A stretch of DNA of 40,867 nucleotides, taken from sequence record PQ821741.1. One strand, 5' to 3'. A program made the translations under genes and the position numbers. Position 1 is the stretch's first letter, and each line of letters opens with the position of its first letter. This document shows positions 1 through 40,867 of this stretch, piece after piece. This stretch comes from a phage. The notes under the pieces are model-generated. The model made no database searches. It saw only the letters and a program-made list of their open reading frames with translations, and had not been told where the DNA came from.

Positions 1-31
1 ATGAAGTGGTGTGATGCAATCATACCGCTGA
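1..31. other. 31-nt segment that is the exact reverse complement of 40390-40420
   Basis: Manual reverse-complement comparison; adjacent to the terminal direct repeat. Confidence 0.85.
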
Positions 32-480
32 ATCCCTATAGAGTCAAGTCCTAGGGTATACCCATAAAGAGCCTCTAATGGTCTATCCTAAGGTATATAC
101 CTAAAGATAGGCCATCCTATCAGTGTCACCTAAAGAGGGTCTTAGAGATGGCCTAGGGAGTTCCTAGAGGGTCCTTTAAAATATACCATAAAAATCTGAG
201 TGACTATCTCACAGTGTACGGACCTAAAGTTCCCCCATAGGGGTACCTAAAGCCCAGCCAATCACCTAAAGTCAACCTTCGGTTGACCTTGAGGGTCCCT
301 AAGGGTTAGGGTTGACCCTTTGAGTGGGCCTTGGGTGTTACCTTGAGTGTCTCTCTGTGTCCCTATCTGTTACAGCCTCCTAAAGTATCCTCCTAAAGTA
401 TCCTCCTAAAGTCACCTCCTAAAGTCATTCCTACCGTCTACAACCTAAAGACTACACCTAAAGACCCATCAAGTCAACGC
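32..480. repeat. Left copy of 449-bp direct repeat shared with window end (wrap-around of genome ends)
   Basis: Identical to 40419-40867 except one mismatch (54 g vs 40441 a); offset 40387. Confidence 0.95.
207..364 (+). repeat. T7-type terminal repeat, left copy
   Basis: Begins TCTCACAGTGTACGGACC and ends CTCTCTGTGTCCCT as in T7; repeated at 40594-40751. Confidence 0.8.
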
Positions 481-560: not shown

Positions 561-573
561 TAATCATTGTCTT

Positions 574-596
574 TAATACAACTCACTATAGGGAGA
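574..596 (+). promoter_or_regulatory. T7 RNAP promoter phiOL (minor, left end)
   Basis: taatacaactcactatagggaga; 22/23 match to consensus. Confidence 0.8.
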
Positions 597-7800: not shown

Positions 7801-8863
7801 AACAATGCCATTTAAAGCTGTGTCTTTCGTAGAGTCTGCCATTAAGAAAGCTCTGGACAACGCTGGGTATCTTATAGCCGACATCAAGTACGATGGTGTA
7901 CGCGGGAACATCTGCGTAGACAATACCGCTAACAGTTGCTGGCTCTCTCGTGTATCAAAAACGATTCCGGCGCTTTCTTACCTTAATGGGTTCGATACAC
8001 GTTGGCAGCGTCTACTAAAGGATGACCGTTGCTTCTACCCTGATGGCTTCATGCTGGATTGCGAACTTATGGTCAAGGGAGTGGACTTCAATACTGGCTC
8101 CGGCCTTCTGCGGACCAAGTGGCTCAACAAGAAGAACATGCAATTCGATATTGGCGGCCCATATGAATCGTGGGACGCGAGCATGAAGGGACTTCCTTTC
8201 GGCCTTGACCCGAACTTACTAACAGTCAAGCTGTACGCCATCCTTCCGCTGCACATCGTGGAGTCTGGAGAAGACTGTGACGTTATGACGTTGCTAATGC
8301 AGGAACACGTTAAGAACATGCTGCCTCTGCTACAGGAATACTTCCCTGAAATCGAATGGCAAGCGGCTGAGTCTTACGAGGTCTACGACATGGTTGAACT
8401 ACAGCAACTGTACGAGAAGAAGCGTGAAGAAGGTCATGAGGGTCTCATTGTGAAAGACCCGATGTGTATCTATAAGCGCGGCAAGAAGTCCGGCTGGTGG
8501 AAGATGAAGCCAGAGAATGAGGCCGATGGTGTCGTTGTGGGACTCAACTGGGGAACTCCCGGTCTTGCCAACGAGGGAAAGGTGATTGGCTTCGAGGTTC
8601 TCCTTGAGTCTGGTCGAGTGGTATCCGCCAACAACATCTCTCAGGCACTTATGGAGGAGTTCACTAAGACTGTAGCTGAGGCAAGCGGTTACACACTAAC
8701 AGGTGGACCCGTAGTAATTCAAGATGGTCAACCAAAGGTCAACCCTTACGAGGGCTGGGCGTGCCAGATTAGCTACATGGAGGAAACCCCAGACGGCTCT
8801 CTGCGTCACCCATCGTTCGTAATGTTCCGTGGCACCGAGGACAACCCTCAAGAGAAAATGTAA
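7790..8863 (+). CDS. 1.3: ATP-dependent DNA ligase
   Basis: 357 aa; KYDGVRG adenylation motif; C-terminus ...DGSLRHPSFVMFRGTEDNPQEKM as T7 ligase. Confidence 0.95.
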   Translation: MQIKTMPFKAVSFVESAIKKALDNAGYLIADIKYDGVRGNICVDNTANSCWLSRVSKTIPALSYLNGFDTRWQRLLKDDRCFYPDGFMLDCELMVKGVDFNTGSGLLRTKWLNKKNMQFDIGGPYESWDASMKGLPFGLDPNLLTVKLYAILPLHIVESGEDCDVMTLLMQEHVKNMLPLLQEYFPEIEWQAAESYEVYDMVELQQLYEKKREEGHEGLIVKDPMCIYKRGKKSGWWKMKPENEADGVVVGLNWGTPGLANEGKVIGFEVLLESGRVVSANNISQALMEEFTKTVAEASGYTLTGGPVVIQDGQPKVNPYEGWACQISYMEETPDGSLRHPSFVMFRGTEDNPQEKM

Positions 8864-8865
8864 AC

Positions 8866-8900
8866 ACACTGGCTCACCTTAGGGTGGGCCTTTCTGCGTT
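8866..8900 (+). terminator. Early terminator TE (rho-independent)
   Basis: ggctcacc-ttag-ggtgggcc hairpin followed by tttctgcgttt. Confidence 0.85.
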
Positions 8901-8923
8901 TAATACGACTCACTAAAGGAGGT
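8901..8923 (+). promoter_or_regulatory. T7 promoter phi1.5
   Basis: taatacgactcactaaaggaggt. Confidence 0.85.
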
Positions 8924-8930
8924 ACACACC

Positions 8931-9077
8931 ATGATGTACTTAATACCATTATTCATCCCTTACGAGGGCTGGGCGTGCCAGATTAGCTACATGGAGGAAA
9001 CCCCAGACGGCTCTCTGCGTCACCCATCGTTCGTAATGTTCCGTGGCACCGAGGACAACCCTCAAGAGAAAATGTAA
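8931..9077 (+). pseudogene. Chimeric ORF from the duplication: 9 N-terminal codons of the small gene fused in frame to the last 39 codons of ligase
   Basis: MMYLIPLFI + PYEGWACQISYMEETPDGSLRHPSFVMFRGTEDNPQEKM; has the native RBS ggagg. Confidence 0.6.
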
Positions 9078-9079
9078 AC

Positions 9080-9114
9080 ACACTGGCTCACCTTAGGGTG
9101 GGCCTTTCTGCGTT
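9080..9114 (+). terminator. Second copy of TE terminator (in duplication)
   Basis: Identical to 8866-8900. Confidence 0.8.
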
Positions 9115-9137
9115 TAATACGACTCACTAAAGGAGGT
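9115..9137 (+). promoter_or_regulatory. Second copy of phi1.5 promoter (in duplication)
   Basis: Identical to 8901-8923. Confidence 0.8.
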
Positions 9138-9144
9138 ACACACC

Positions 9145-9234
9145 ATGATGTACTTAATACCATTATTCATCGTCATCCTAGGATGCCTTGCGCTCACCTG
9201 TAGCGACGACGATATGCCAGATGGTCACGCTTAA
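9145..9234 (+). CDS. Small protein, gene 1.4/1.5-like (29 aa)
   Basis: MMYLIPLFIVILGCLALTCSDDDMPDGHA; RBS aggagg. Confidence 0.7.
   Translation: MMYLIPLFIVILGCLALTCSDDDMPDGHA

Positions 9235-10043: not shown

Positions 10044-10056
<13 letters not shown>
9520..10056 (+). CDS. 1.7: Gene 1.7 nucleotide kinase
   Basis: 178 aa; TGATG overlap with 1.6; matches T7 gp1.7. Confidence 0.85.
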
Positions 10057-10561
<505 letters not shown>

Positions 10562-15120: not shown

Positions 15121-17352
15121 ATGATCGTTTCTGACATCGAAGCTAACGCCCTCTTAGAGAGCGTCACTAAGTTCCACTGCGGGGTTATCTACGACTACTC
15201 TACCGCTGAGTACGTAAGCTACCGTCCGAGTGACTTCGGTGCGTATCTGGATGCGCTGGAAGCCGAGGTTGCACGAGGCGGTCTTATTGTGTTCCACAAC
15301 GGTCACAAGTATGACGTTCCTGCATTGACAAAACTGGCAAAGCTGCAATTGAACCGAGAGTTCCACATTCCTCGTGAGAACTGTATCGACACCCTTGTGC
15401 TGTCACGCTTGATTCACTCTAACCTCAAGGACACCGACATGGGTCTTCTGCGTTCCGGTAAACTTCCGGGTAAACGCTTTGGGTCTCACGCTTTGGAGGC
15501 GTGGGGTTATCGCTTAGGCGAGATGAAGGGTGAATACAAGGACGACTTTAAGCGTATGCTTGAAGAGCAGGGTGAAGAATACGTTGACGGAATGGAGTGG
15601 TGGAACTTCAACGAAGAGATGATGGCCTATAACGTTCAGGACGTTGTGGTCACTAAGGCTCTCCTTGAGAAATTACTGTCAGACAAGCACTATTTCCCTT
15701 TAGGTTTAGAGCACGTTAATTATGATTCTATAATCTTTTGGAAAGACTCTATCGAAGCTATTGATGTTGAACATAGAGCAGCTTGGTTGTTAGCTAAACA
15801 GGAGCGTAATGGTTTCCCATTTGACGCTAAGGCAATCGAGGAGTTGTACGTAGAGTTAGCTGCTCGCCGCTCTGAGTTGCTCCGCAAATTGACCGAAACG
15901 TTCGGCTCATGGTATCAGCCCAAAGGTGGCACCGAAATGTTCTGCCATCCGAGGACTGGTAAGCCACTGCCCAAATACCCTCGCATTAAGACACCTAAAG
16001 TTGGTGGTATCTTTAAGAAGCCTAAGAACAAGGCACAGCGAGAAGGCCGTGAGCCTTGCGAACTGGATACCCGCGAGTACGTTGCTGGTGCCCCTTACAC
16101 CCCAGTTGAGCATGTAGTGTTTAACCCATCGTCTCGTGACCACATCCAGAAGAAACTCCAAGAGGCTGGATGGGTCCCAACCAAGTACACCGATAAGGGT
16201 GCGCCTGTGGTGGACGATGAGGTACTCGAAGGAGTACGTGTAGATGACCCTGAGAAGCAAGCTGCAATCGACCTCATTAAAGAATACTTGATGATTCAGA
16301 AGCGAATCGGACAGTCTGCTGAGGGAGACAAGGCGTGGCTTCGTTACGTTGCCGATGATGGTAAGATTCACGGCTCTGTAAACCCTAACGGGGCAGTTAC
16401 TGGTCGCGCTACCCATGCTTTCCCCAACCTTGCGCAAATTCCGGGTGTGCGTTCACCTTATGGAGAGCAGTGTCGCGCTGCTTTTGGTGCTGAACATCAC
16501 CTAGACGGTATTACTGGTAAGCCTTGGGTTCAGGCGGGTATCGACGCATCCGGTCTGGAACTACGCTGCTTGGCCCACTTCATGGCTCGCTTTGATAACG
16601 GCGAGTACGCTCACGAGATTCTTAATGGAGACATCCACACTAAGAACCAGATGGCTGCCGACGCATCCGGTCTGGAACTACGCTGCTTGGCCCACTTCAT
16701 GGCTCGCTTTGATAACGGCGAGTACGCTCACGAGATTCTTAATGGAGACATCCACACTAAGAACCAGATGGCTGCCGAATTGCCTACCCGTGATAACGCC
16801 AAGACGTTCATCTATGGGTTCCTCTACGGTGCTGGCGATGAGAAGATTGGGCAGATTGTCGGTGCTGGTAAAGAGCGTGGTAAGGAACTCAAGAAGAAAT
16901 TCCTTGAGAACACCCCTGCGATTGCGGCACTCCGAGAGTCTATCCAACAGACACTTGTTGAGTCCTCTCAGTGGGTAGCTGGCGAACAGCGAGTCAAGTG
17001 GAAACGCCGCTGGATTAAAGGTCTGGATGGTCGCAAGGTACACGTTCGTAGTCCTCACGCTGCCCTGAATACCCTACTGCAATCCGCTGGTGCGCTCATC
17101 TGCAAACTGTGGATTATCAAGACCGAAGAGATGCTCGTAGAGAAAGGCTTGAAGCATGGCTGGGATGGGGACTTTGCGTACATGGCGTGGGTCCACGATG
17201 AAATCCAAGTGGGTTGTCGTACCGAAGAGATTGCTCAGGTGGTCATTGAGACAGCACAAGAAGCGATGCGCTGGGTTGGAGACCACTGGAACTTCCGGTG
17301 TCTTCTGGATACAGAAGGTAAGATGGGTCCTAATTGGGCCGTATGTCACTAA
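15121..17352 (+). CDS. 5: DNA polymerase (family A), carrying an internal 39-aa in-frame tandem duplication
   Basis: 743 aa against 704 in T7; otherwise near-identical to T7 gp5. Confidence 0.95.
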   Translation: MIVSDIEANALLESVTKFHCGVIYDYSTAEYVSYRPSDFGAYLDALEAEVARGGLIVFHNGHKYDVPALTKLAKLQLNREFHIPRENCIDTLVLSRLIHSNLKDTDMGLLRSGKLPGKRFGSHALEAWGYRLGEMKGEYKDDFKRMLEEQGEEYVDGMEWWNFNEEMMAYNVQDVVVTKALLEKLLSDKHYFPLGLEHVNYDSIIFWKDSIEAIDVEHRAAWLLAKQERNGFPFDAKAIEELYVELAARRSELLRKLTETFGSWYQPKGGTEMFCHPRTGKPLPKYPRIKTPKVGGIFKKPKNKAQREGREPCELDTREYVAGAPYTPVEHVVFNPSSRDHIQKKLQEAGWVPTKYTDKGAPVVDDEVLEGVRVDDPEKQAAIDLIKEYLMIQKRIGQSAEGDKAWLRYVADDGKIHGSVNPNGAVTGRATHAFPNLAQIPGVRSPYGEQCRAAFGAEHHLDGITGKPWVQAGIDASGLELRCLAHFMARFDNGEYAHEILNGDIHTKNQMAADASGLELRCLAHFMARFDNGEYAHEILNGDIHTKNQMAAELPTRDNAKTFIYGFLYGAGDEKIGQIVGAGKERGKELKKKFLENTPAIAALRESIQQTLVESSQWVAGEQRVKWKRRWIKGLDGRKVHVRSPHAALNTLLQSAGALICKLWIIKTEEMLVEKGLKHGWDGDFAYMAWVHDEIQVGCRTEEIAQVVIETAQEAMRWVGDHWNFRCLLDTEGKMGPNWAVCH
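16542..16775 (+). repeat. Exact in-frame tandem duplication, 117-bp unit (16542-16658 and 16659-16775)
   Basis: 120 nt identity at offset 117 with cga microhomology; encodes DASGLELRCLAHFMARFDNGEYAHEILNGDIHTKNQMAA twice. Confidence 0.95.
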
Positions 17353-17814
17353 TTCTAAAGGAGAAATTATTATGGCTATGACCAAGAAATTTAAAGTGTC
17401 CTTCGATGTTACCGCTAAGATGCCATCTGACGTTCAGGCAATCTTAGAGAAAGACATGCTACACCTGTGTAAGCAGGTTGGCTCCGGTGCTATCGTGCCA
17501 GATGGTAAACAGAAGGAAATGATTGTACAGTTCCTGACATATGGTTGGAGACCACTGGAACTTCCGGTGTCTTCTGGATACAGAAGGTAAGATGGGTCCT
17601 AATTGGGCCGTATGTCACTAATTCTAAAGGAGAAATTATTATGGCTATGACCAAGAAATTTAAAGTGTCCTTCGATGTTACCGCTAAGATGCCATCTGAC
17701 GTTCAGGCAATCTTAGAGAAAGACATGCTACACCTGTGTAAGCAGGTTGGCTCCGGTGCTATCGTGCCAGATGGTAAACAGAAGGAAATGATTGTACAGT
17801 TCCTGACATATGGT
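17277..17814 (+). repeat. Exact tandem duplication, 269-bp unit (17277-17545 and 17546-17814)
   Basis: 272 nt identity at offset 269 with ggt microhomology; spans gene 5 3' end, intergenic RBS and 5' 56 codons of gene 5.5. Confidence 0.95.
17372..17590 (+). pseudogene. Truncated gene 5.5 copy fused out of frame to a duplicated gene 5 tail (72 aa)
   Basis: First 56 codons identical to gene 5.5, then frame-shifted tail WRPLELPVSSGYRR*. Confidence 0.7.
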
Positions 17815-34980: not shown

Positions 34981-35000
34981 TACGACTCACTATAGGGAGA
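34978..35000 (+). promoter_or_regulatory. T7 promoter phi17
   Basis: taatacgactcactatagggaga, overlapping gene 16 stop. Confidence 0.9.
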
Positions 35001-35052
35001 GGTGAAAGAATCTTCTCCCTGTAGTCTCTTAGATTTACTTTAAGGAGGTAAA

Positions 35053-35736
35053 ATGGCTAACGTAATTAAAACAGTTTTGACTTACCCGTTAGATGGCTCC
35101 ACTCGTGATTTTAATATCCCGTTTGAGTATCTAGCCCGTAAGTTCGTAGTGGTAACTCTTATTGGTGTAGACCGCAAGGTCCTTACGATTAATACAGACT
35201 ACCGTTTTGCTACTCGCACTACCATCTCATTAACCAAGGCTTGGGGTCCAGCGGATGGATATACTACCATCGAGTTGCGCCGAGTAACCTCAACTACCGA
35301 CCGATTGGTTGACTTTACAGATGGTTCAATCCTCCGTGCATATGACCTTAACGTGGCTCAGATTCAGACTATGCATGTGGCAGAAGAGGCACGTGACTTA
35401 ACTGCGGATACAATCGGTGTCAATAGTGACGGTCACTTGGATGCCCGTGGTCGTCGAATTGTGAACCTAGCGAACGCTGTAGATGATTATGATGCCATCA
35501 ACCTACGTCAGGTTAAGCTGTGGAACAATAGTGCGTATCAATCAGCCGTGAACGCGAAGACCTCTGAGACGAACGCTAAGACCTCTGAGACAAACGCCTT
35601 AACATACCGCAATTCTGCTGCTGCTAGTGCCACCGCTGCAAGCACTTCTGAGACGAACGCGAAGACCTCTGAGACGAACGCGAAGACCTCTGAGACGAAC
35701 GCGAAGACCTCTGAGATTACTGCGAAGTTCCTATAA
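35053..35736 (+). pseudogene. 17: Tail fibre gene 17, N-terminal part, ending at premature TAA
   Basis: MANVIKTVLTY...FNIPFEYLARKFVVVTLIGVDRKVLT... matches T7/T3 gp17 N-terminus; frame ends ...TSEITAKFL* at 35734-36. Confidence 0.85.
35556..35723 (+). repeat. 21-bp tandem repeats encoding the heptad TSETNAK (2 units, 42-bp spacer, 4 units)
   Basis: gaagacctctgagacgaacgc repeated; two adjacent units are nucleotide-identical. Confidence 0.85.
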
Positions 35737-35868
35737 GGATGCTGCTGCTTCAAGTGCCACTGCTTCTGCTGCTAGTGCAGCTACCTGTAAGGCAGTTGCT
35801 ATAAGGATGCTGCTGCTTCAAGTGCCACTGCTTCTGCTGCTAGTGCAGCTACCTCTAAGGCAGAGGCC
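35733..35868 (+). repeat. Imperfect 68-bp tandem repeat inside gene 17 (35733-35800 and 35801-35868)
   Basis: First ~55 nt identical, 3' ends differ; copy 1 is +1 relative to the gene frame and carries TAA/TAG/TAA stops. Confidence 0.85.
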
Positions 35869-36489
35869 GACCGCGCGGAGCTACGTGCAAACCAAGCAGG
35901 TGGAGCTAGGGTTATAAACGGAATCTATCCAGATTCTAGTGGAAGCGTAACACTCACTACTGATGACATCAAAGACCCATCTGGTGTTACCATAATGATG
36001 GCTGTTCGATCTATGATTGACGCTATCTTTCCTGTCGGTATTCGCATGGATTGGCCTCTCGCTTCCCTTCCCGATAATCCAACACTTGGTGTTAAGTTTC
36101 TTAGGTTGGATGGGTCTAGCTTTGATAAAACACAGTACCCCAAGCTGGCTGCCATATATCCGTCTGGAGTTTTGCCAGATTTACGTGGTGAGTTTATTCG
36201 TGGCTGGGATGACGGGCGCGGGGTTGATGGTGGGCGCGTTGTTTTAACTGGTCAGAGCCAATCAGTACAGCAGCATACTCATGGTCTAGCGATGGCATAC
36301 AGTTCAGAGAGCGGTTACAAGGACAAGCTAGGCGCTGGCCCTAACTCTGACATGATTCCGATTAAAGATATGATTAAAGTAACCACTTTTACTGGTTCTG
36401 GTGAGTATTACTTAAAGGCGAATGATTCAACAGGTGTTGAAACTCGCCCGCGCAACGTCGCATTTAACTTCATCGTGAGGGCCGCATAA
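35803..36489 (+). pseudogene. 17: Tail fibre gene 17, C-terminal part with tip 1 (in frame with N-terminal part but separated by stops)
   Basis: KDAAASSATASAASAATSKAEADRAE...GEFIRGWDDGRGVDGGR...TRPRNVAFNFIVRAA*; no own start or RBS. Confidence 0.8.
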
Positions 36490-36841
36490 TGACACAGGCA
36501 AAATTAAACAGTGAATTTATTGCCACAGTAGCGGGTGATATGAAGATTCTAGTGGAAGCGTAACACTCACTACTGATGACATCAAAGACCCATCTGGTGT
36601 TACCATAATGATGGCTGTTCGATCTATGATTGACGCTATCTTTCCTGTCGGTATTCGCATGGATTGGCCTCTCGCTTCCCTTCCCGATAATCCAACACTT
36701 GGTGTTAAGTTTCTTAGGTTGGATGGGTCTAGCTTTGATAAAACACAGTACCCCAAGCTGGCTGCCATATATCCGTCTGGAGTTTTGCCAGATTTACGTG
36801 GTGAGTTTATTCGTGGCTGGGATGACGGGCGCGGGGTTGAT
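35931..36841 (+). repeat. 298-bp exact direct repeat (35931-36228 and 36544-36841), period 613 bp
   Basis: Base-by-base identical; both copies encode ...DSSGSVTLTTDDIKDPSGVTIMMAVRSMIDAIFPVGIRMDW...GEFIRGWDDGRGVD. Confidence 0.95.
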
Positions 36842-37123
36842 AGAGGGCGCGGATTAATGAGTGCTCAGGGCGATGCCATTCGGAATATTACTGGTCGCAT
36901 TAGGGGCGGGTCATCTGGGTCTTATGGTAAAATCTTCCTGGATGAATCTAGTGGTGCTTTTTTCCCTTCCGGTGAGGATGGAGAACAGTTCCATCCTTCA
37001 TCGACACCTCTACCTTATGGGAGATACAACACTGTAGATTTTGATGCTAGCAGGGTAGTCCCAACTGCCGACGAAAACCGCCCAAGAAACGTTGCGTGGA
37101 ATATGATTGTGAGGGCATCGTAA
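36539..37123 (+). other. Promoterless, startless second tail-fibre C-terminal cassette (tip 2)
   Basis: Reading frame opens after TGA at 36536-38; shared 298-bp stem then divergent tip ...NRPRNVAWNMIVRAS*; no RBS; first ATG is the internal Met-Met at 36608. Confidence 0.75.
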
Positions 37124-38174: not shown

Positions 38175-39946
38175 TGAGGAAAGGTGTATCCGCTCAGTCC
38201 AATCGTAATGCGCTCGTTGTGGCGCAACTAAAGGGTGACTTCGTGGCGTTCCTGTTCGTCTTATGGAAGGCGTTAAACCTGCCAGTACCAACTAAGTGCC
38301 AAATTGACATGGCTAAGGTGCTGGCGAATGGGGACAACAAGAAGTTCATCCTACAGGCTTTCCGTGGTATCGGTAAGTCGTTCATCACGTGTGCGTTCGT
38401 TGTGTGGTCACTATGGAGGGACCCTCAGTTGAAGATACTTATCGTATCAGCTTCTAAAGAACGTGCAGACGCTAACTCCATATTCATCAAGAACATCATT
38501 GACCTGCTACCGTTTCTCAGTGAGTTGAAGCCGAGACCCGGACAGCGTGACTCTGTGATTAGCTTTGATGTTGGTCCTGCGAGTCCTGACCACTCTCCTA
38601 GTGTGAAATCAGTAGGTATCACTGGTCAGTTAACTGGTAGTCGTGCTGATATTATCATTGCAGATGACGTTGAGATTCCATCTAACAGCGCAACTATGGG
38701 TGCCCGTGAGAAGCTATGGACTCTTGTTCAGGAGTTCGCTGCGTTGCTTAAACCGCTGCCTTCCTCACGAGTTATCTACCTTGGCACACCTCAGACCGAG
38801 ATGACTCTCTATAAGGAACTTGAGGATAACCGTGGGTACACAACCATTATCTGGCCCGCTCTGTATCCAAGGACACGTGAAGAGAACCTCTATTACTCAC
38901 AGCGTCTTGCTCCTATGTTACGCGCTGAGTACGATGAGAACCCTGAGGCCCTCGCTGGGACTCCTACGGACCCTGTGCGCTTTGACCGTGATGACCTCCG
39001 TGAGCGTGAGTTGGAATACGGTAAGGCTGGCTTCACACTACAGTTCATGCTTAACCCGAACCTGAGTGATGCCGAGAAGTACCCTCTGAGGCTCCGTGAC
39101 GCTATCGTAGCGGCCTTAGACTTAGAGAAGGCACCAATGCATTACCAGTGGCTTCCGAACCGTCAGAACCTCATTGAGGACCTTCCTAACGTGGGCCTTA
39201 AGGGTGATGACCTGCACACCTACCACGATTGCTCCAATAACTCTGGTCAGTATCAACAGAAGATTCTGATTATTGACCCAAGTGGTCGTGGTAAGGACGA
39301 AACAGGTTACGCTGTGCTGTACACCCTCAACGGTTACATCTACCTTATGGAAGCTGGAGGTTTCCGTGATGGTTACTCTGATAAGACCCTTGAGTTGCTC
39401 GCTAAGAAAGCTAAGCAATGGGGAGTCCAGACGGTCGTCTATGAGAGTAACTTCGGTGACGGTATGTTTGGTAAGGTATTCAGTCCTATCCTTCTTAAAC
39501 ACCACAACTGTGCTATGGAAGAGATTCGTGCTCGTGGTATGAAGGAGATGCGCATTTGTGATACCCTTGAGCCAGTCATGCAGACTCACCGACTTGTCAT
39601 TCGTGATGAGGTCATTAGGGCCGACTATCAGTCCGCTCGTGATGTAGACGGTAAGCATGACGTTAAGTATTCACTGTTCTACCAGATGACTCGTATCACT
39701 CGTGAGAAAGGCGCTCTGGCCCATGATGACCGATTGGATGCCCTTGCGCTAGGCGTTGAGTATCTCCGTGAGTCCATGCAGTTGGATTCCGTTAAGGTCG
39801 AAGGTGAAGTGCTTGCTGACTTCCTTGAGGAACATATGATGCGTCCTACGGTTGCTGCTACGCATATCATTGAGATGTCTGTGGGAGGAGTTGATGTGTA
39901 CTCTGAGGACGATGAGGGCTACGGTACGTCTTTCATTGAGTGGTGA
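38174..39946 (+). CDS. 19: Terminase large subunit (DNA maturase B)
   Basis: 590 aa; T7 gp19 homolog. Confidence 0.96.
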
Positions 39947-40026
39947 TTTATGCATTAGGACTGCATAGGGATGCACTATAGACCACGGATGGTCAGTTCT
40001 TTAAGTTACTGAAAAGACACGATAAA

Positions 40027-40049
40027 TTAATACGACTCACTATAGGGAG
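40027..40049 (+). promoter_or_regulatory. T7 promoter phiOR
   Basis: taatacgactcactatagggaga. Confidence 0.9.
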
Positions 40050-40204
40050 AGGAGGGACGAAAGGTTACTATATAGATACTGAATGAATACTTATAGAGTG
40101 CATAAAGTATGCATAGTAGTGTACCTAAAGTGACCTCTAAGAATGGTGATTATATTGTATTAATATCACCTTAACTTAAAGTCCAACATAAAGGGAGGAG
40201 ACTC

Positions 40205-40354
40205 ATGTTCCGCTTATTGTTGAACCTACTGCGGCATAGAGTCACCTACCGATTTCTTGTGGTACTTTGTGCTGCCCTTGGGTACGCATCTCTTACTGGA
40301 GACCTCAGTTCACTGGAGTCTGCCGTTTGCTCTATACTCACTTGTAGCGATTAG
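40205..40354 (+). CDS. 19.5: Gp19.5
   Basis: 49 aa MFRLLLNLLRHRVTYRFLVVLCAALGYASLTGDLSSLESAVCSILTCSD; RBS aagggaggag. Confidence 0.85.
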   Translation: MFRLLLNLLRHRVTYRFLVVLCAALGYASLTGDLSSLESAVCSILTCSD

Positions 40355-40418
40355 GGTCTTCCTGACCGACTGATGGCTCACCGAGGGATTCAGCGGTATG
40401 ATTGCATCACACCACTTC

Positions 40419-40867
40419 ATCCCTATAGAGTCAAGTCCTAAGGTATACCCATAAAGAGCCTCTAATGGTCTATCCTAAGGTATATACCTAAAGATAGGCC
40501 ATCCTATCAGTGTCACCTAAAGAGGGTCTTAGAGATGGCCTAGGGAGTTCCTAGAGGGTCCTTTAAAATATACCATAAAAATCTGAGTGACTATCTCACA
40601 GTGTACGGACCTAAAGTTCCCCCATAGGGGTACCTAAAGCCCAGCCAATCACCTAAAGTCAACCTTCGGTTGACCTTGAGGGTCCCTAAGGGTTAGGGTT
40701 GACCCTTTGAGTGGGCCTTGGGTGTTACCTTGAGTGTCTCTCTGTGTCCCTATCTGTTACAGCCTCCTAAAGTATCCTCCTAAAGTATCCTCCTAAAGTC
40801 ACCTCCTAAAGTCATTCCTACCGTCTACAACCTAAAGACTACACCTAAAGACCCATCAAGTCAACGC
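40419..40867. repeat. Right copy of 449-bp direct repeat (wrap-around into the genome left end)
   Basis: Identical to 32-480 except one mismatch. Confidence 0.95.
40594..40751 (+). repeat. T7-type terminal repeat, right copy
   Basis: Identical to 207-364. Confidence 0.8.

Follow-up and report, generated by a model that had tools for sequence, protein, structure and literature searches.

The concatemer junction of bacteriophage T7 contains, in order: gene 19.5; a quasi-palindrome; repeats of the CCTAAAG type; a terminal repeat (TR) of 160 nt running from TCTCACAGTGTACGG to GTGTCCCT; the sequence ATCTGTT; and the promoter phiOL. ATCTGTT, the CJ site, serves T7 RNA polymerase as the class II pause/termination signal at this junction. 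A 'hairpin end' is also said to arise in T7 concatemer processing, reportedly described by Chung, Nardone and Hinkle (J Mol Biol 1990;216:939). In phage T3, the experimentally determined termini (PMC3896407) carry the motifs TCTCA.AG... and ...GTGTCCCT, both of which recur in the TR of the DNA analysed here.

Template switching at short inverted repeats is an established mechanism of spacer inversion and of arm correction (PMC8604942). In the quasi-palindrome template-switch mutations of the Ripley model, the breakpoints lie in the arms and the segment between them is an exact reverse complement of the original (PMC8604942, PMC7202029); a nearby point change may also raise the perfection of a palindrome (PMC8604942). 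Short-read assemblies of T7-like phages (Studiervirinae) have their own characteristic artefacts: the genome is commonly opened at an arbitrary internal position, the direct terminal repeat (DTR) lies away from the contig ends, and spurious repeats can appear outside it (PMC10438801).

The window, the whole 40,867-nt stretch of sequence record PQ821741.1, has features in common with each of these systems. Its junction follows the T7 order of parts at 93-97% nucleotide identity. It differs from T7 in having a TR of 158 nt, one additional 13-nt CCTCCTAAAGT.. unit after the CJ site, and a sequence that is given in permuted form, where artificial redundancy adds 289 nt around the TR. As in the template-switch mutations, an exactly reverse-complemented segment has its breakpoints in palindrome arms and is accompanied by a point change, G54, that perfects a neighbouring palindrome. 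Compared with the cases in PMC8604942, the perfect arms are only 6 bp, the 29-nt spacer is longer, only one of the two inversion junctions is visible, and an in vitro origin is equally possible. The arbitrary opening, the displaced DTR and the repeats outside it match the short-read artefacts, whereas here the DTR has been kept and traversed twice rather than collapsed, and the contig tip is inverted. Finally, a fold-back at 40384-40424 would yield a hairpin-ended molecule with the TR in it, similar in general terms to the T7 'hairpin end' reportedly described by Chung, Nardone and Hinkle (1990). The T7 equivalent of the window's palindrome is deleted in mutant clones.

Genome layout and terminal repeat

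The window is colinear with T7 along its full length and contains 17 T7-type promoters. It belongs to a Teseptimavirus, a T7 relative, whose nearest GenBank phages are ~91-93% identical to it; no GenBank record is identical to the window. No sibling assembly was found, whether by exact protein matches to the RNA polymerase, gp5, the large terminase and the tail-fibre tip or by a search of three collections for a strain-specific 34-mer of the TR. Scanned in full against Rfam, the window matched no family.

An earlier note on this DNA had read positions 40388-40867 as the right-hand copy of a wrap-around repeat that differs from the left copy by a single base. The wrap-around is borne out: the end-to-end repeat has a period of 40387, which corresponds to a unit genome of exactly 40,387 bp, and the contig passes the T7-type junction twice. 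The extent of the repeat is different from that proposed. When 1-480 is set against 40388-40867 there are 12 differences. Positions 3-31 account for 11 of these, since the head of the window is inverted: 1-37 matches 40384-40420 perfectly as its reverse complement. The true direct repeat pairs 34-480 with 40421-40867, with its left boundary in the right copy at 40421, and the G54/A40441 difference that the note had picked out is the sole mismatch in its 447 nt. In 40.9 kb, chance can account for neither the direct match of 447 nt nor the perfect inverted match of 37 nt, and the end-to-end repeat lies far beyond it. An assembly-defined DTR has its first N bases equal to its last N. Here 11 of the first 31 bases differ, and identity of the contig ends begins only at base 34, in the sole register of high identity.

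Homology places the physical ends of the genome within this repeat. Base 1 of T7, N30, C5, UFV01 and vB_YpYeO9 aligns to window 207 and the last T7 base, 39937, aligns to window 40751; the TR is therefore 207-364, repeated at 40594-40751. The two copies are identical to each other, with the conserved left-terminal sequence at 207 and 40594 and the conserved right-terminal GTGTCCCTATCTGTT at 357 and 40744. In Yersinia phage Y, the stretch homologous to the window TR is annotated as a TR, and the TRs of relatives at the homologous place measure 148-231 nt. The flanks are also those of T7: phiOR lies upstream, phiOL lies downstream, and the gene order is colinear; the TR length fits the ~150-240 bp expected of this type. 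With every sequence-level defining feature that was tested present, the region appears to be a normal T7-type concatemer junction (Table 1).

The window is thus a circularly permuted contig that runs through the concatemer junction twice, its opening being 206 nt to the left of the TR. By homology, 158 of the 447 repeated nucleotides are also repeated in the virion, and the other 289 nt are artificial redundancy around the TR, 34-206 being right-end sequence only and 365-480 left-end sequence only. The T7/T3 homology likewise bears out the earlier placement of the G/A difference outside the TR proper, in sequence that is single-copy in a linear genome. Within the right-end sequence, a 38-nt quasi-palindrome that is 84% self-complementary (ATGGTCTATCCTAAGGTATATACCTAAAGATAGGCCAT) occurs at 78-115 and 40465-40502; T7 also has one.

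Table 1. Features of the concatemer junction and of the contig ends (positions in the window)
Feature	Position	Strand	Remarks
Inverted head	1..37	-	37 nt, 100% reverse complement of 40384-40420 (inverted pair I1)
Left copy of direct repeat, contig start	34..480	+	Repeat family D5
G54 allele, perfect 10-nt palindrome GGGTATACCC (native AGGTATACCC)	54..63	.	Left copy only
TR proper, left-end copy	207..364	+	207 is the probable physical left end, by homology
T7-type promoter, phiOL equivalent, just past repeat	569..596	+	Family D1; T7 phiOL at 405
T7-type promoter, phiOR equivalent	40023..40050	+	Family D1; T7 phiOR at 39229 maps here
Gene 19.5 homologue, 49 aa, last gene before junction	40205..40354	+	ORF; T7 gene 19.5 (39389-39538) aligns
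Quasi-palindrome AGGGATTCAGCGGTATGAT-TGC-ATCACACCACTTCATCCCT	40384..40424	.	AGGGAT...ATCCCT arms, 15/19 possible pairs; equals T7 39568-39608
Right copy of direct repeat, from right-end region across TR into left-end region	40421..40867	+	Equals 34-480 with 1 mismatch in 447; colinear with virtual T7 concatemer junction and permuted relatives
Right-end short-repeat region, C[CA]TAA[AG]G heptamers, single-copy in virion	40421..40593	+	Between 41-nt palindrome and TR; I2-I4, D2
A allele, family-wide base	40441..40441	+	57-mer in GenBank, 31-mer in IMG/VR
TR proper, right-end copy, 158 nt, TCTCACAGTGTACGG...GTGTCCCT	40594..40751	+	T7 39778-39937 aligns; equals 207-364
CJ site ATCTGTT, directly after TR	40752..40758, also 365-371	+	'CJ' terminator annotated at homologous position in phage Y
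Left-end array of 13-nt repeats CCTCCTAAAGT.., single-copy in virion	40763..40827, also 376-440	+	Family D2, spacing 13

The inverted contig head

The head of the contig consists of a 33-nt inverted segment and a further 4 nt that are common to the palindrome arm. It reads as the reverse complement of the spacer, then ATCCCT, then the downstream sequence, and the inverted segment is bounded exactly by the 6-bp arms AGGGAT/ATCCCT. Where the native junction joins CACTTCATCCCT to ATAGAGTC, the inverted junction joins GCTGAATCCCT to ATAGAGTC. The second junction of an inversion would be expected to join CACCGAGGGAT to GAAGTGG; the contig starts inside the left arm.

Relatives carry the native arrangement. 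In an alignment of the virtual T7 junction with seven permuted relatives, the 33-mer is always in the orientation of the right copy, and 33 palindrome-containing loci present just three sequence variants, all of them in native orientation. IMG/VR, JGI metagenomes and GTDB genomes all lack a 28-mer that crosses the inverted junction, and among the 184 matches in GenBank phages none covers the inverted head at full length. Given these empty searches, the inverted junction is not a recurrent natural form. The predicted second junction, CACCGAGGGATGAAGTGGTGTGATGC, which combines the upstream flank with the inverted spacer, is likewise not found in IMG/VR.

The inverted head also creates a sigma-70-like promoter match at 47-19 on the minus strand (TTGACT, 17 nt, TATGAT; 10/12), which the scan did not report in the native right copy. 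This match is probably a meaningless by-product of the inversion.

The single-base difference

At the other anomalous position, the base of the right copy is that of the family. A 57-mer with the A allele has 100% identity in 136 of 180 GenBank relatives, whereas none of 177 GenBank records reaches 99% identity with the corresponding G-allele 57-mer. The A-allele 31-mer is present in nine IMG/VR contigs and the G-allele 31-mer in no IMG/VR contig. The virtual T7 junction and the seven permuted relatives all have A at the 40441 site. Because relatives share both its orientation and its A allele, while the inverted junction and the G are absent from the collections searched, the right copy (40421-40867) is the authentic one and the left copy aberrant, with both anomalies contained in its first 54 bases.

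The change from A to G has a particular local consequence. The native context is A-GGTATACC-C, and the substitution extends the 8-nt palindrome GGTATACC to the 10-nt GGGTATACCC. Only 12 of the 1341 substitutions possible in the repeat (0.9%) give a perfect palindrome of at least 10 nt, and a lone mismatch would fall as close to the inversion breakpoint as G54 does (17 nt) with P ~0.04 by chance; both figures were computed post hoc, after the pattern had been seen, and are optimistic values to be discounted. The combination of proximity and palindrome perfection nevertheless favours one linked template-switch event over ordinary standing polymorphism.

A conserved quasi-palindrome at the breakpoints

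The inversion breakpoints fall in the arms of a 41-nt quasi-palindrome that lies between gene 19.5 and the TR, its centre ~190 nt to the left of the TR. As single-stranded DNA the element folds modestly (-8.5 kcal/mol, z -2.2). Together with the next 20 nt it forms the most conserved block of the junction, at 99-100% across 17 sequences, a set that takes in one relative just 70% identical in the flanks.

T3, which belongs to a different genus, has a quasi-palindrome at the equivalent place (L020 575-615). The T7-type and T3-type elements differ at ten positions, eight of which make up four complementary pair swaps; the other two are one already mismatched position and one at the loop centre. 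All 15 of the 15 pairs are kept in every variant, the four mismatched positions stay mismatched, and the covariation is absent in controls slid by 1-3 columns. Taken as one evolutionary comparison, which is what the two lineages amount to, this pattern indicates that the dyad symmetry of the quasi-palindrome is under selection. Such selection fits a DNA hairpin, an RNA hairpin or the site of a dimeric protein alike. Candidate roles for the element are: a pair of packaging-signal half-sites; a hairpin; a fold-back site; and a protein dimer site.

In MZ375240, MZ375276 and other mutant T7 clones, which are complete-genome deposits, T7 39429-39608 has been lost. This 180-bp deletion runs between two 8-bp ATAGAGTC direct repeats, which are also present in the window at 40236 and 40425, and takes out most of gene 19.5 along with the entire quasi-palindrome. 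Because these clones delete it, the quasi-palindrome appears to be dispensable. The same clones match the window only from 40425 and had been considered as carriers of the same breakpoint; they were rejected as such, the 180-bp deletion being the explanation.

Repeats and gene integrity elsewhere in the contig

Four perfect (100%) head-to-tail duplications are present in the contig, at 8743-9171, 10044-10372, 16542-16778 and 17274-17814. Their periods are 214, 163, 117 and 269 nt, their junctions lie at 8957, 10207, 16659 and 17543, and each junction has 1-3 nt of microhomology. T7 has none of the four. They are either mis-assembly, the products of chimeric reads, or very recent duplications.

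The 117-nt duplication (16542-16778) is in frame inside gene 5 (15121-17352), which encodes the DNA polymerase. It repeats 39 amino acids (DASGLELR...KNQMAA, T7 residues 475-513), so that the protein has 743 residues as compared to 704 in T7. T7 residues 475-513 include the catalytic aspartate of motif A. Since the duplicated stretch holds this aspartate, it is doubtful that the gene 5 enzyme is functional.

Spaced repeats occur with periods of 410 and 613 nt. The former is a 372-nt exact repeat, 1582-1953 and 1992-2363, which doubles gene 0.3 in its 3' part together with the small gene that comes next. A 55-nt hairpin-containing element, which may resemble a T7 early-region RNase III site, is present in three copies (1872-1926, 2282-2336 and 2577-2631). 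A strong sigma-70 promoter region similar to T7 A3 (TTGACA...TACGAT) occurs twice, at 1023-1065 and 1134-1176, the copies being 95% identical and 111 nt apart.

Four ORFs take the place of a single tail-fibre gene 17 (35053-37123); the N-terminal T7 tail-fibre domain is intact. Two alternative C-terminal 'collar' receptor-binding tips follow in series (35791-36486 and 36539-37120); both match the same part of phrog_523 and they have a 298-nt identical core in common. The shaft contains 21-nt and 68-nt tandem repeats, and in this region nucleotide matches to known phages are confined to 35000-35486. A single ORF hidden by the repeats was considered and rejected: the gene stays broken when the 68-nt and 613-nt repeats are collapsed. 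The tips are either alleles of two strains that the assembler placed one after the other or genuine tip cassettes. Genes other than the tail fibre are mostly intact and T7-sized, and the problem of this contig is therefore structural rather than one of base-level noise.

Origin of the aberrant left end

The reading we prefer, with a probability of roughly 0.6, is that an assembly overlap across a T7-type junction was combined with a tip derived from a strand-switched molecule or read, or a few of them. The sequence of events would likely involve: extension of the assembly past the concatemer junction a second time, leaving 447 nt at both ends; a strand switch by a polymerase within the arms AGGGAT/ATCCCT, inverting the intervening 29-33 nt; a change from A to G 17 bases further on, templated by the neighbouring palindrome (AGGTATACCC to GGGTATACCC); and attachment of the aberrant molecule or read by the assembler as the contig tip. 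The first 54 bases would then be a poorly supported tip of that origin.

The geometry of the head is that of a switch between the arms, each anomaly is unique to this contig end, and each is associated with a palindrome. From this we infer that both came from one aberrant molecule or read, which the assembler would have joined to the contig as its tip. The switch may have occurred in vitro, during library preparation, amplification or end repair, or in vivo, giving a rare variant genome; both fit the sequence, and a real variant at low frequency is a possible alternative to a contig-end artefact. The single novel junction of the head is expected from spacer inversion and from fold-back alike; with a contig that starts inside the left arm, these are not separable. 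Further signs of mis-assembly, namely the perfect tandem duplications and the fragmented tail-fibre gene, support an artefact. Counting against it are: the behaviour of a plain de Bruijn assembler, which given a circle would not yield a 447-nt end overlap; the two tail-fibre tip alleles, given which the sample may hold more than one strain and the G/A difference may be ordinary polymorphism; and the intact state of most other genes, which have T7 gene lengths and point to generally good base-level quality.

The earlier note had offered population heterogeneity or an error made on joining the ends. Both belong among the options; the inversion of the first 33-37 bases and the aberrant nature of the left copy had escaped it. 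Under heterogeneity, two strains or variants carrying A and G would each have supplied the allele of one junction pass, and the inverted head would be a separate artefact. The two alternative tail-fibre tips in series could reflect such a mixture, but the G allele is missing from every GenBank and IMG/VR sequence compared, its site is in the most conserved block of the junction, and the closeness to the breakpoint and the perfection of the palindrome would both be coincidences; we regard this account as unlikely. Somewhat less probable again is that G54 is a random base-calling or polishing error, independent of any template switch, at a contig end of low coverage. Contig ends are typically thinly covered and G54 is only 54 nt from this one. 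However, few random substitutions (the 12 in 1341 above) perfect a palindrome of at least 10 nt, and outside the tail-fibre gene frame-breaking errors are not scattered through the contig.

The head could also represent a real in vivo snap-back or hairpin intermediate of replication and packaging, in which leftward synthesis folds back at the quasi-palindrome and copies itself. A fold-back there would produce one novel junction, and the head has exactly this one, with the palindrome in reverse complement running on into downstream sequence. The palindrome itself, with dyad symmetry that appears to be selected, lies ~190 nt to the left of the TR, and hairpin DNA that contains the TR is reported from T7 infection (PMC4281155). 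Set against this, deposited mutant T7 clones lack all of the palindrome, which thus appears non-essential; the junction is found in no other public assembly among those of IMG/VR, JGI metagenomes, GTDB and GenBank; and the contig stops inside the arm, leaving the other side of any hairpin outside it. This reading is improbable. The least credible of the alternatives, and a very improbable one, is a genuine long direct terminal repeat that takes up all of the 447-480 nt. A DTR usually shows itself in an assembly by identical ends, but these ends are non-identical, with the first 33 nt inverted; conserved T7/T3 terminal motifs lie inside the repeat, at 207 and 364; the TRs of relatives at the homologous place are far shorter; and T7-type replication regenerates both TR copies from one, so that differences between them are unexpected.

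Implications

The wrap-around redundancy, the inverted head and, most likely, G54 appear to be products of assembly on a strand-switched template. In kind, this is an ordinary finding that has already been explained, either a rare variant or an artefact of the contig end. The consequence is mainly one for curation: 207 should become the new opening point, and the 289 nt of redundancy and the aberrant first 54 bases should be dropped. Subject to checks of the internal duplications, the genome to report would then measure ~40,545 bp and have terminal repeats of 158 bp. It would be mistaken to read biology into the G/A difference or to call the 447-480 nt a DTR. The useful outputs are: corrected coordinates; identification of the left, not the right, copy as aberrant; and a warning about the internal duplications.

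The breakpoints also expose a strongly conserved quasi-palindrome beside the T7/T3 packaging region, the symmetry of which has been kept by four compensatory changes. It is improbable, as judged above, that the inverted head and the palindrome-perfecting G are the trace of an in vivo strand switch or snap-back at this dyad element left of the TR. If they are, the quasi-palindrome (T7 39568-39608) would be the fold-back site of the proposed hairpin intermediate that duplicates the TR in concatemer processing.
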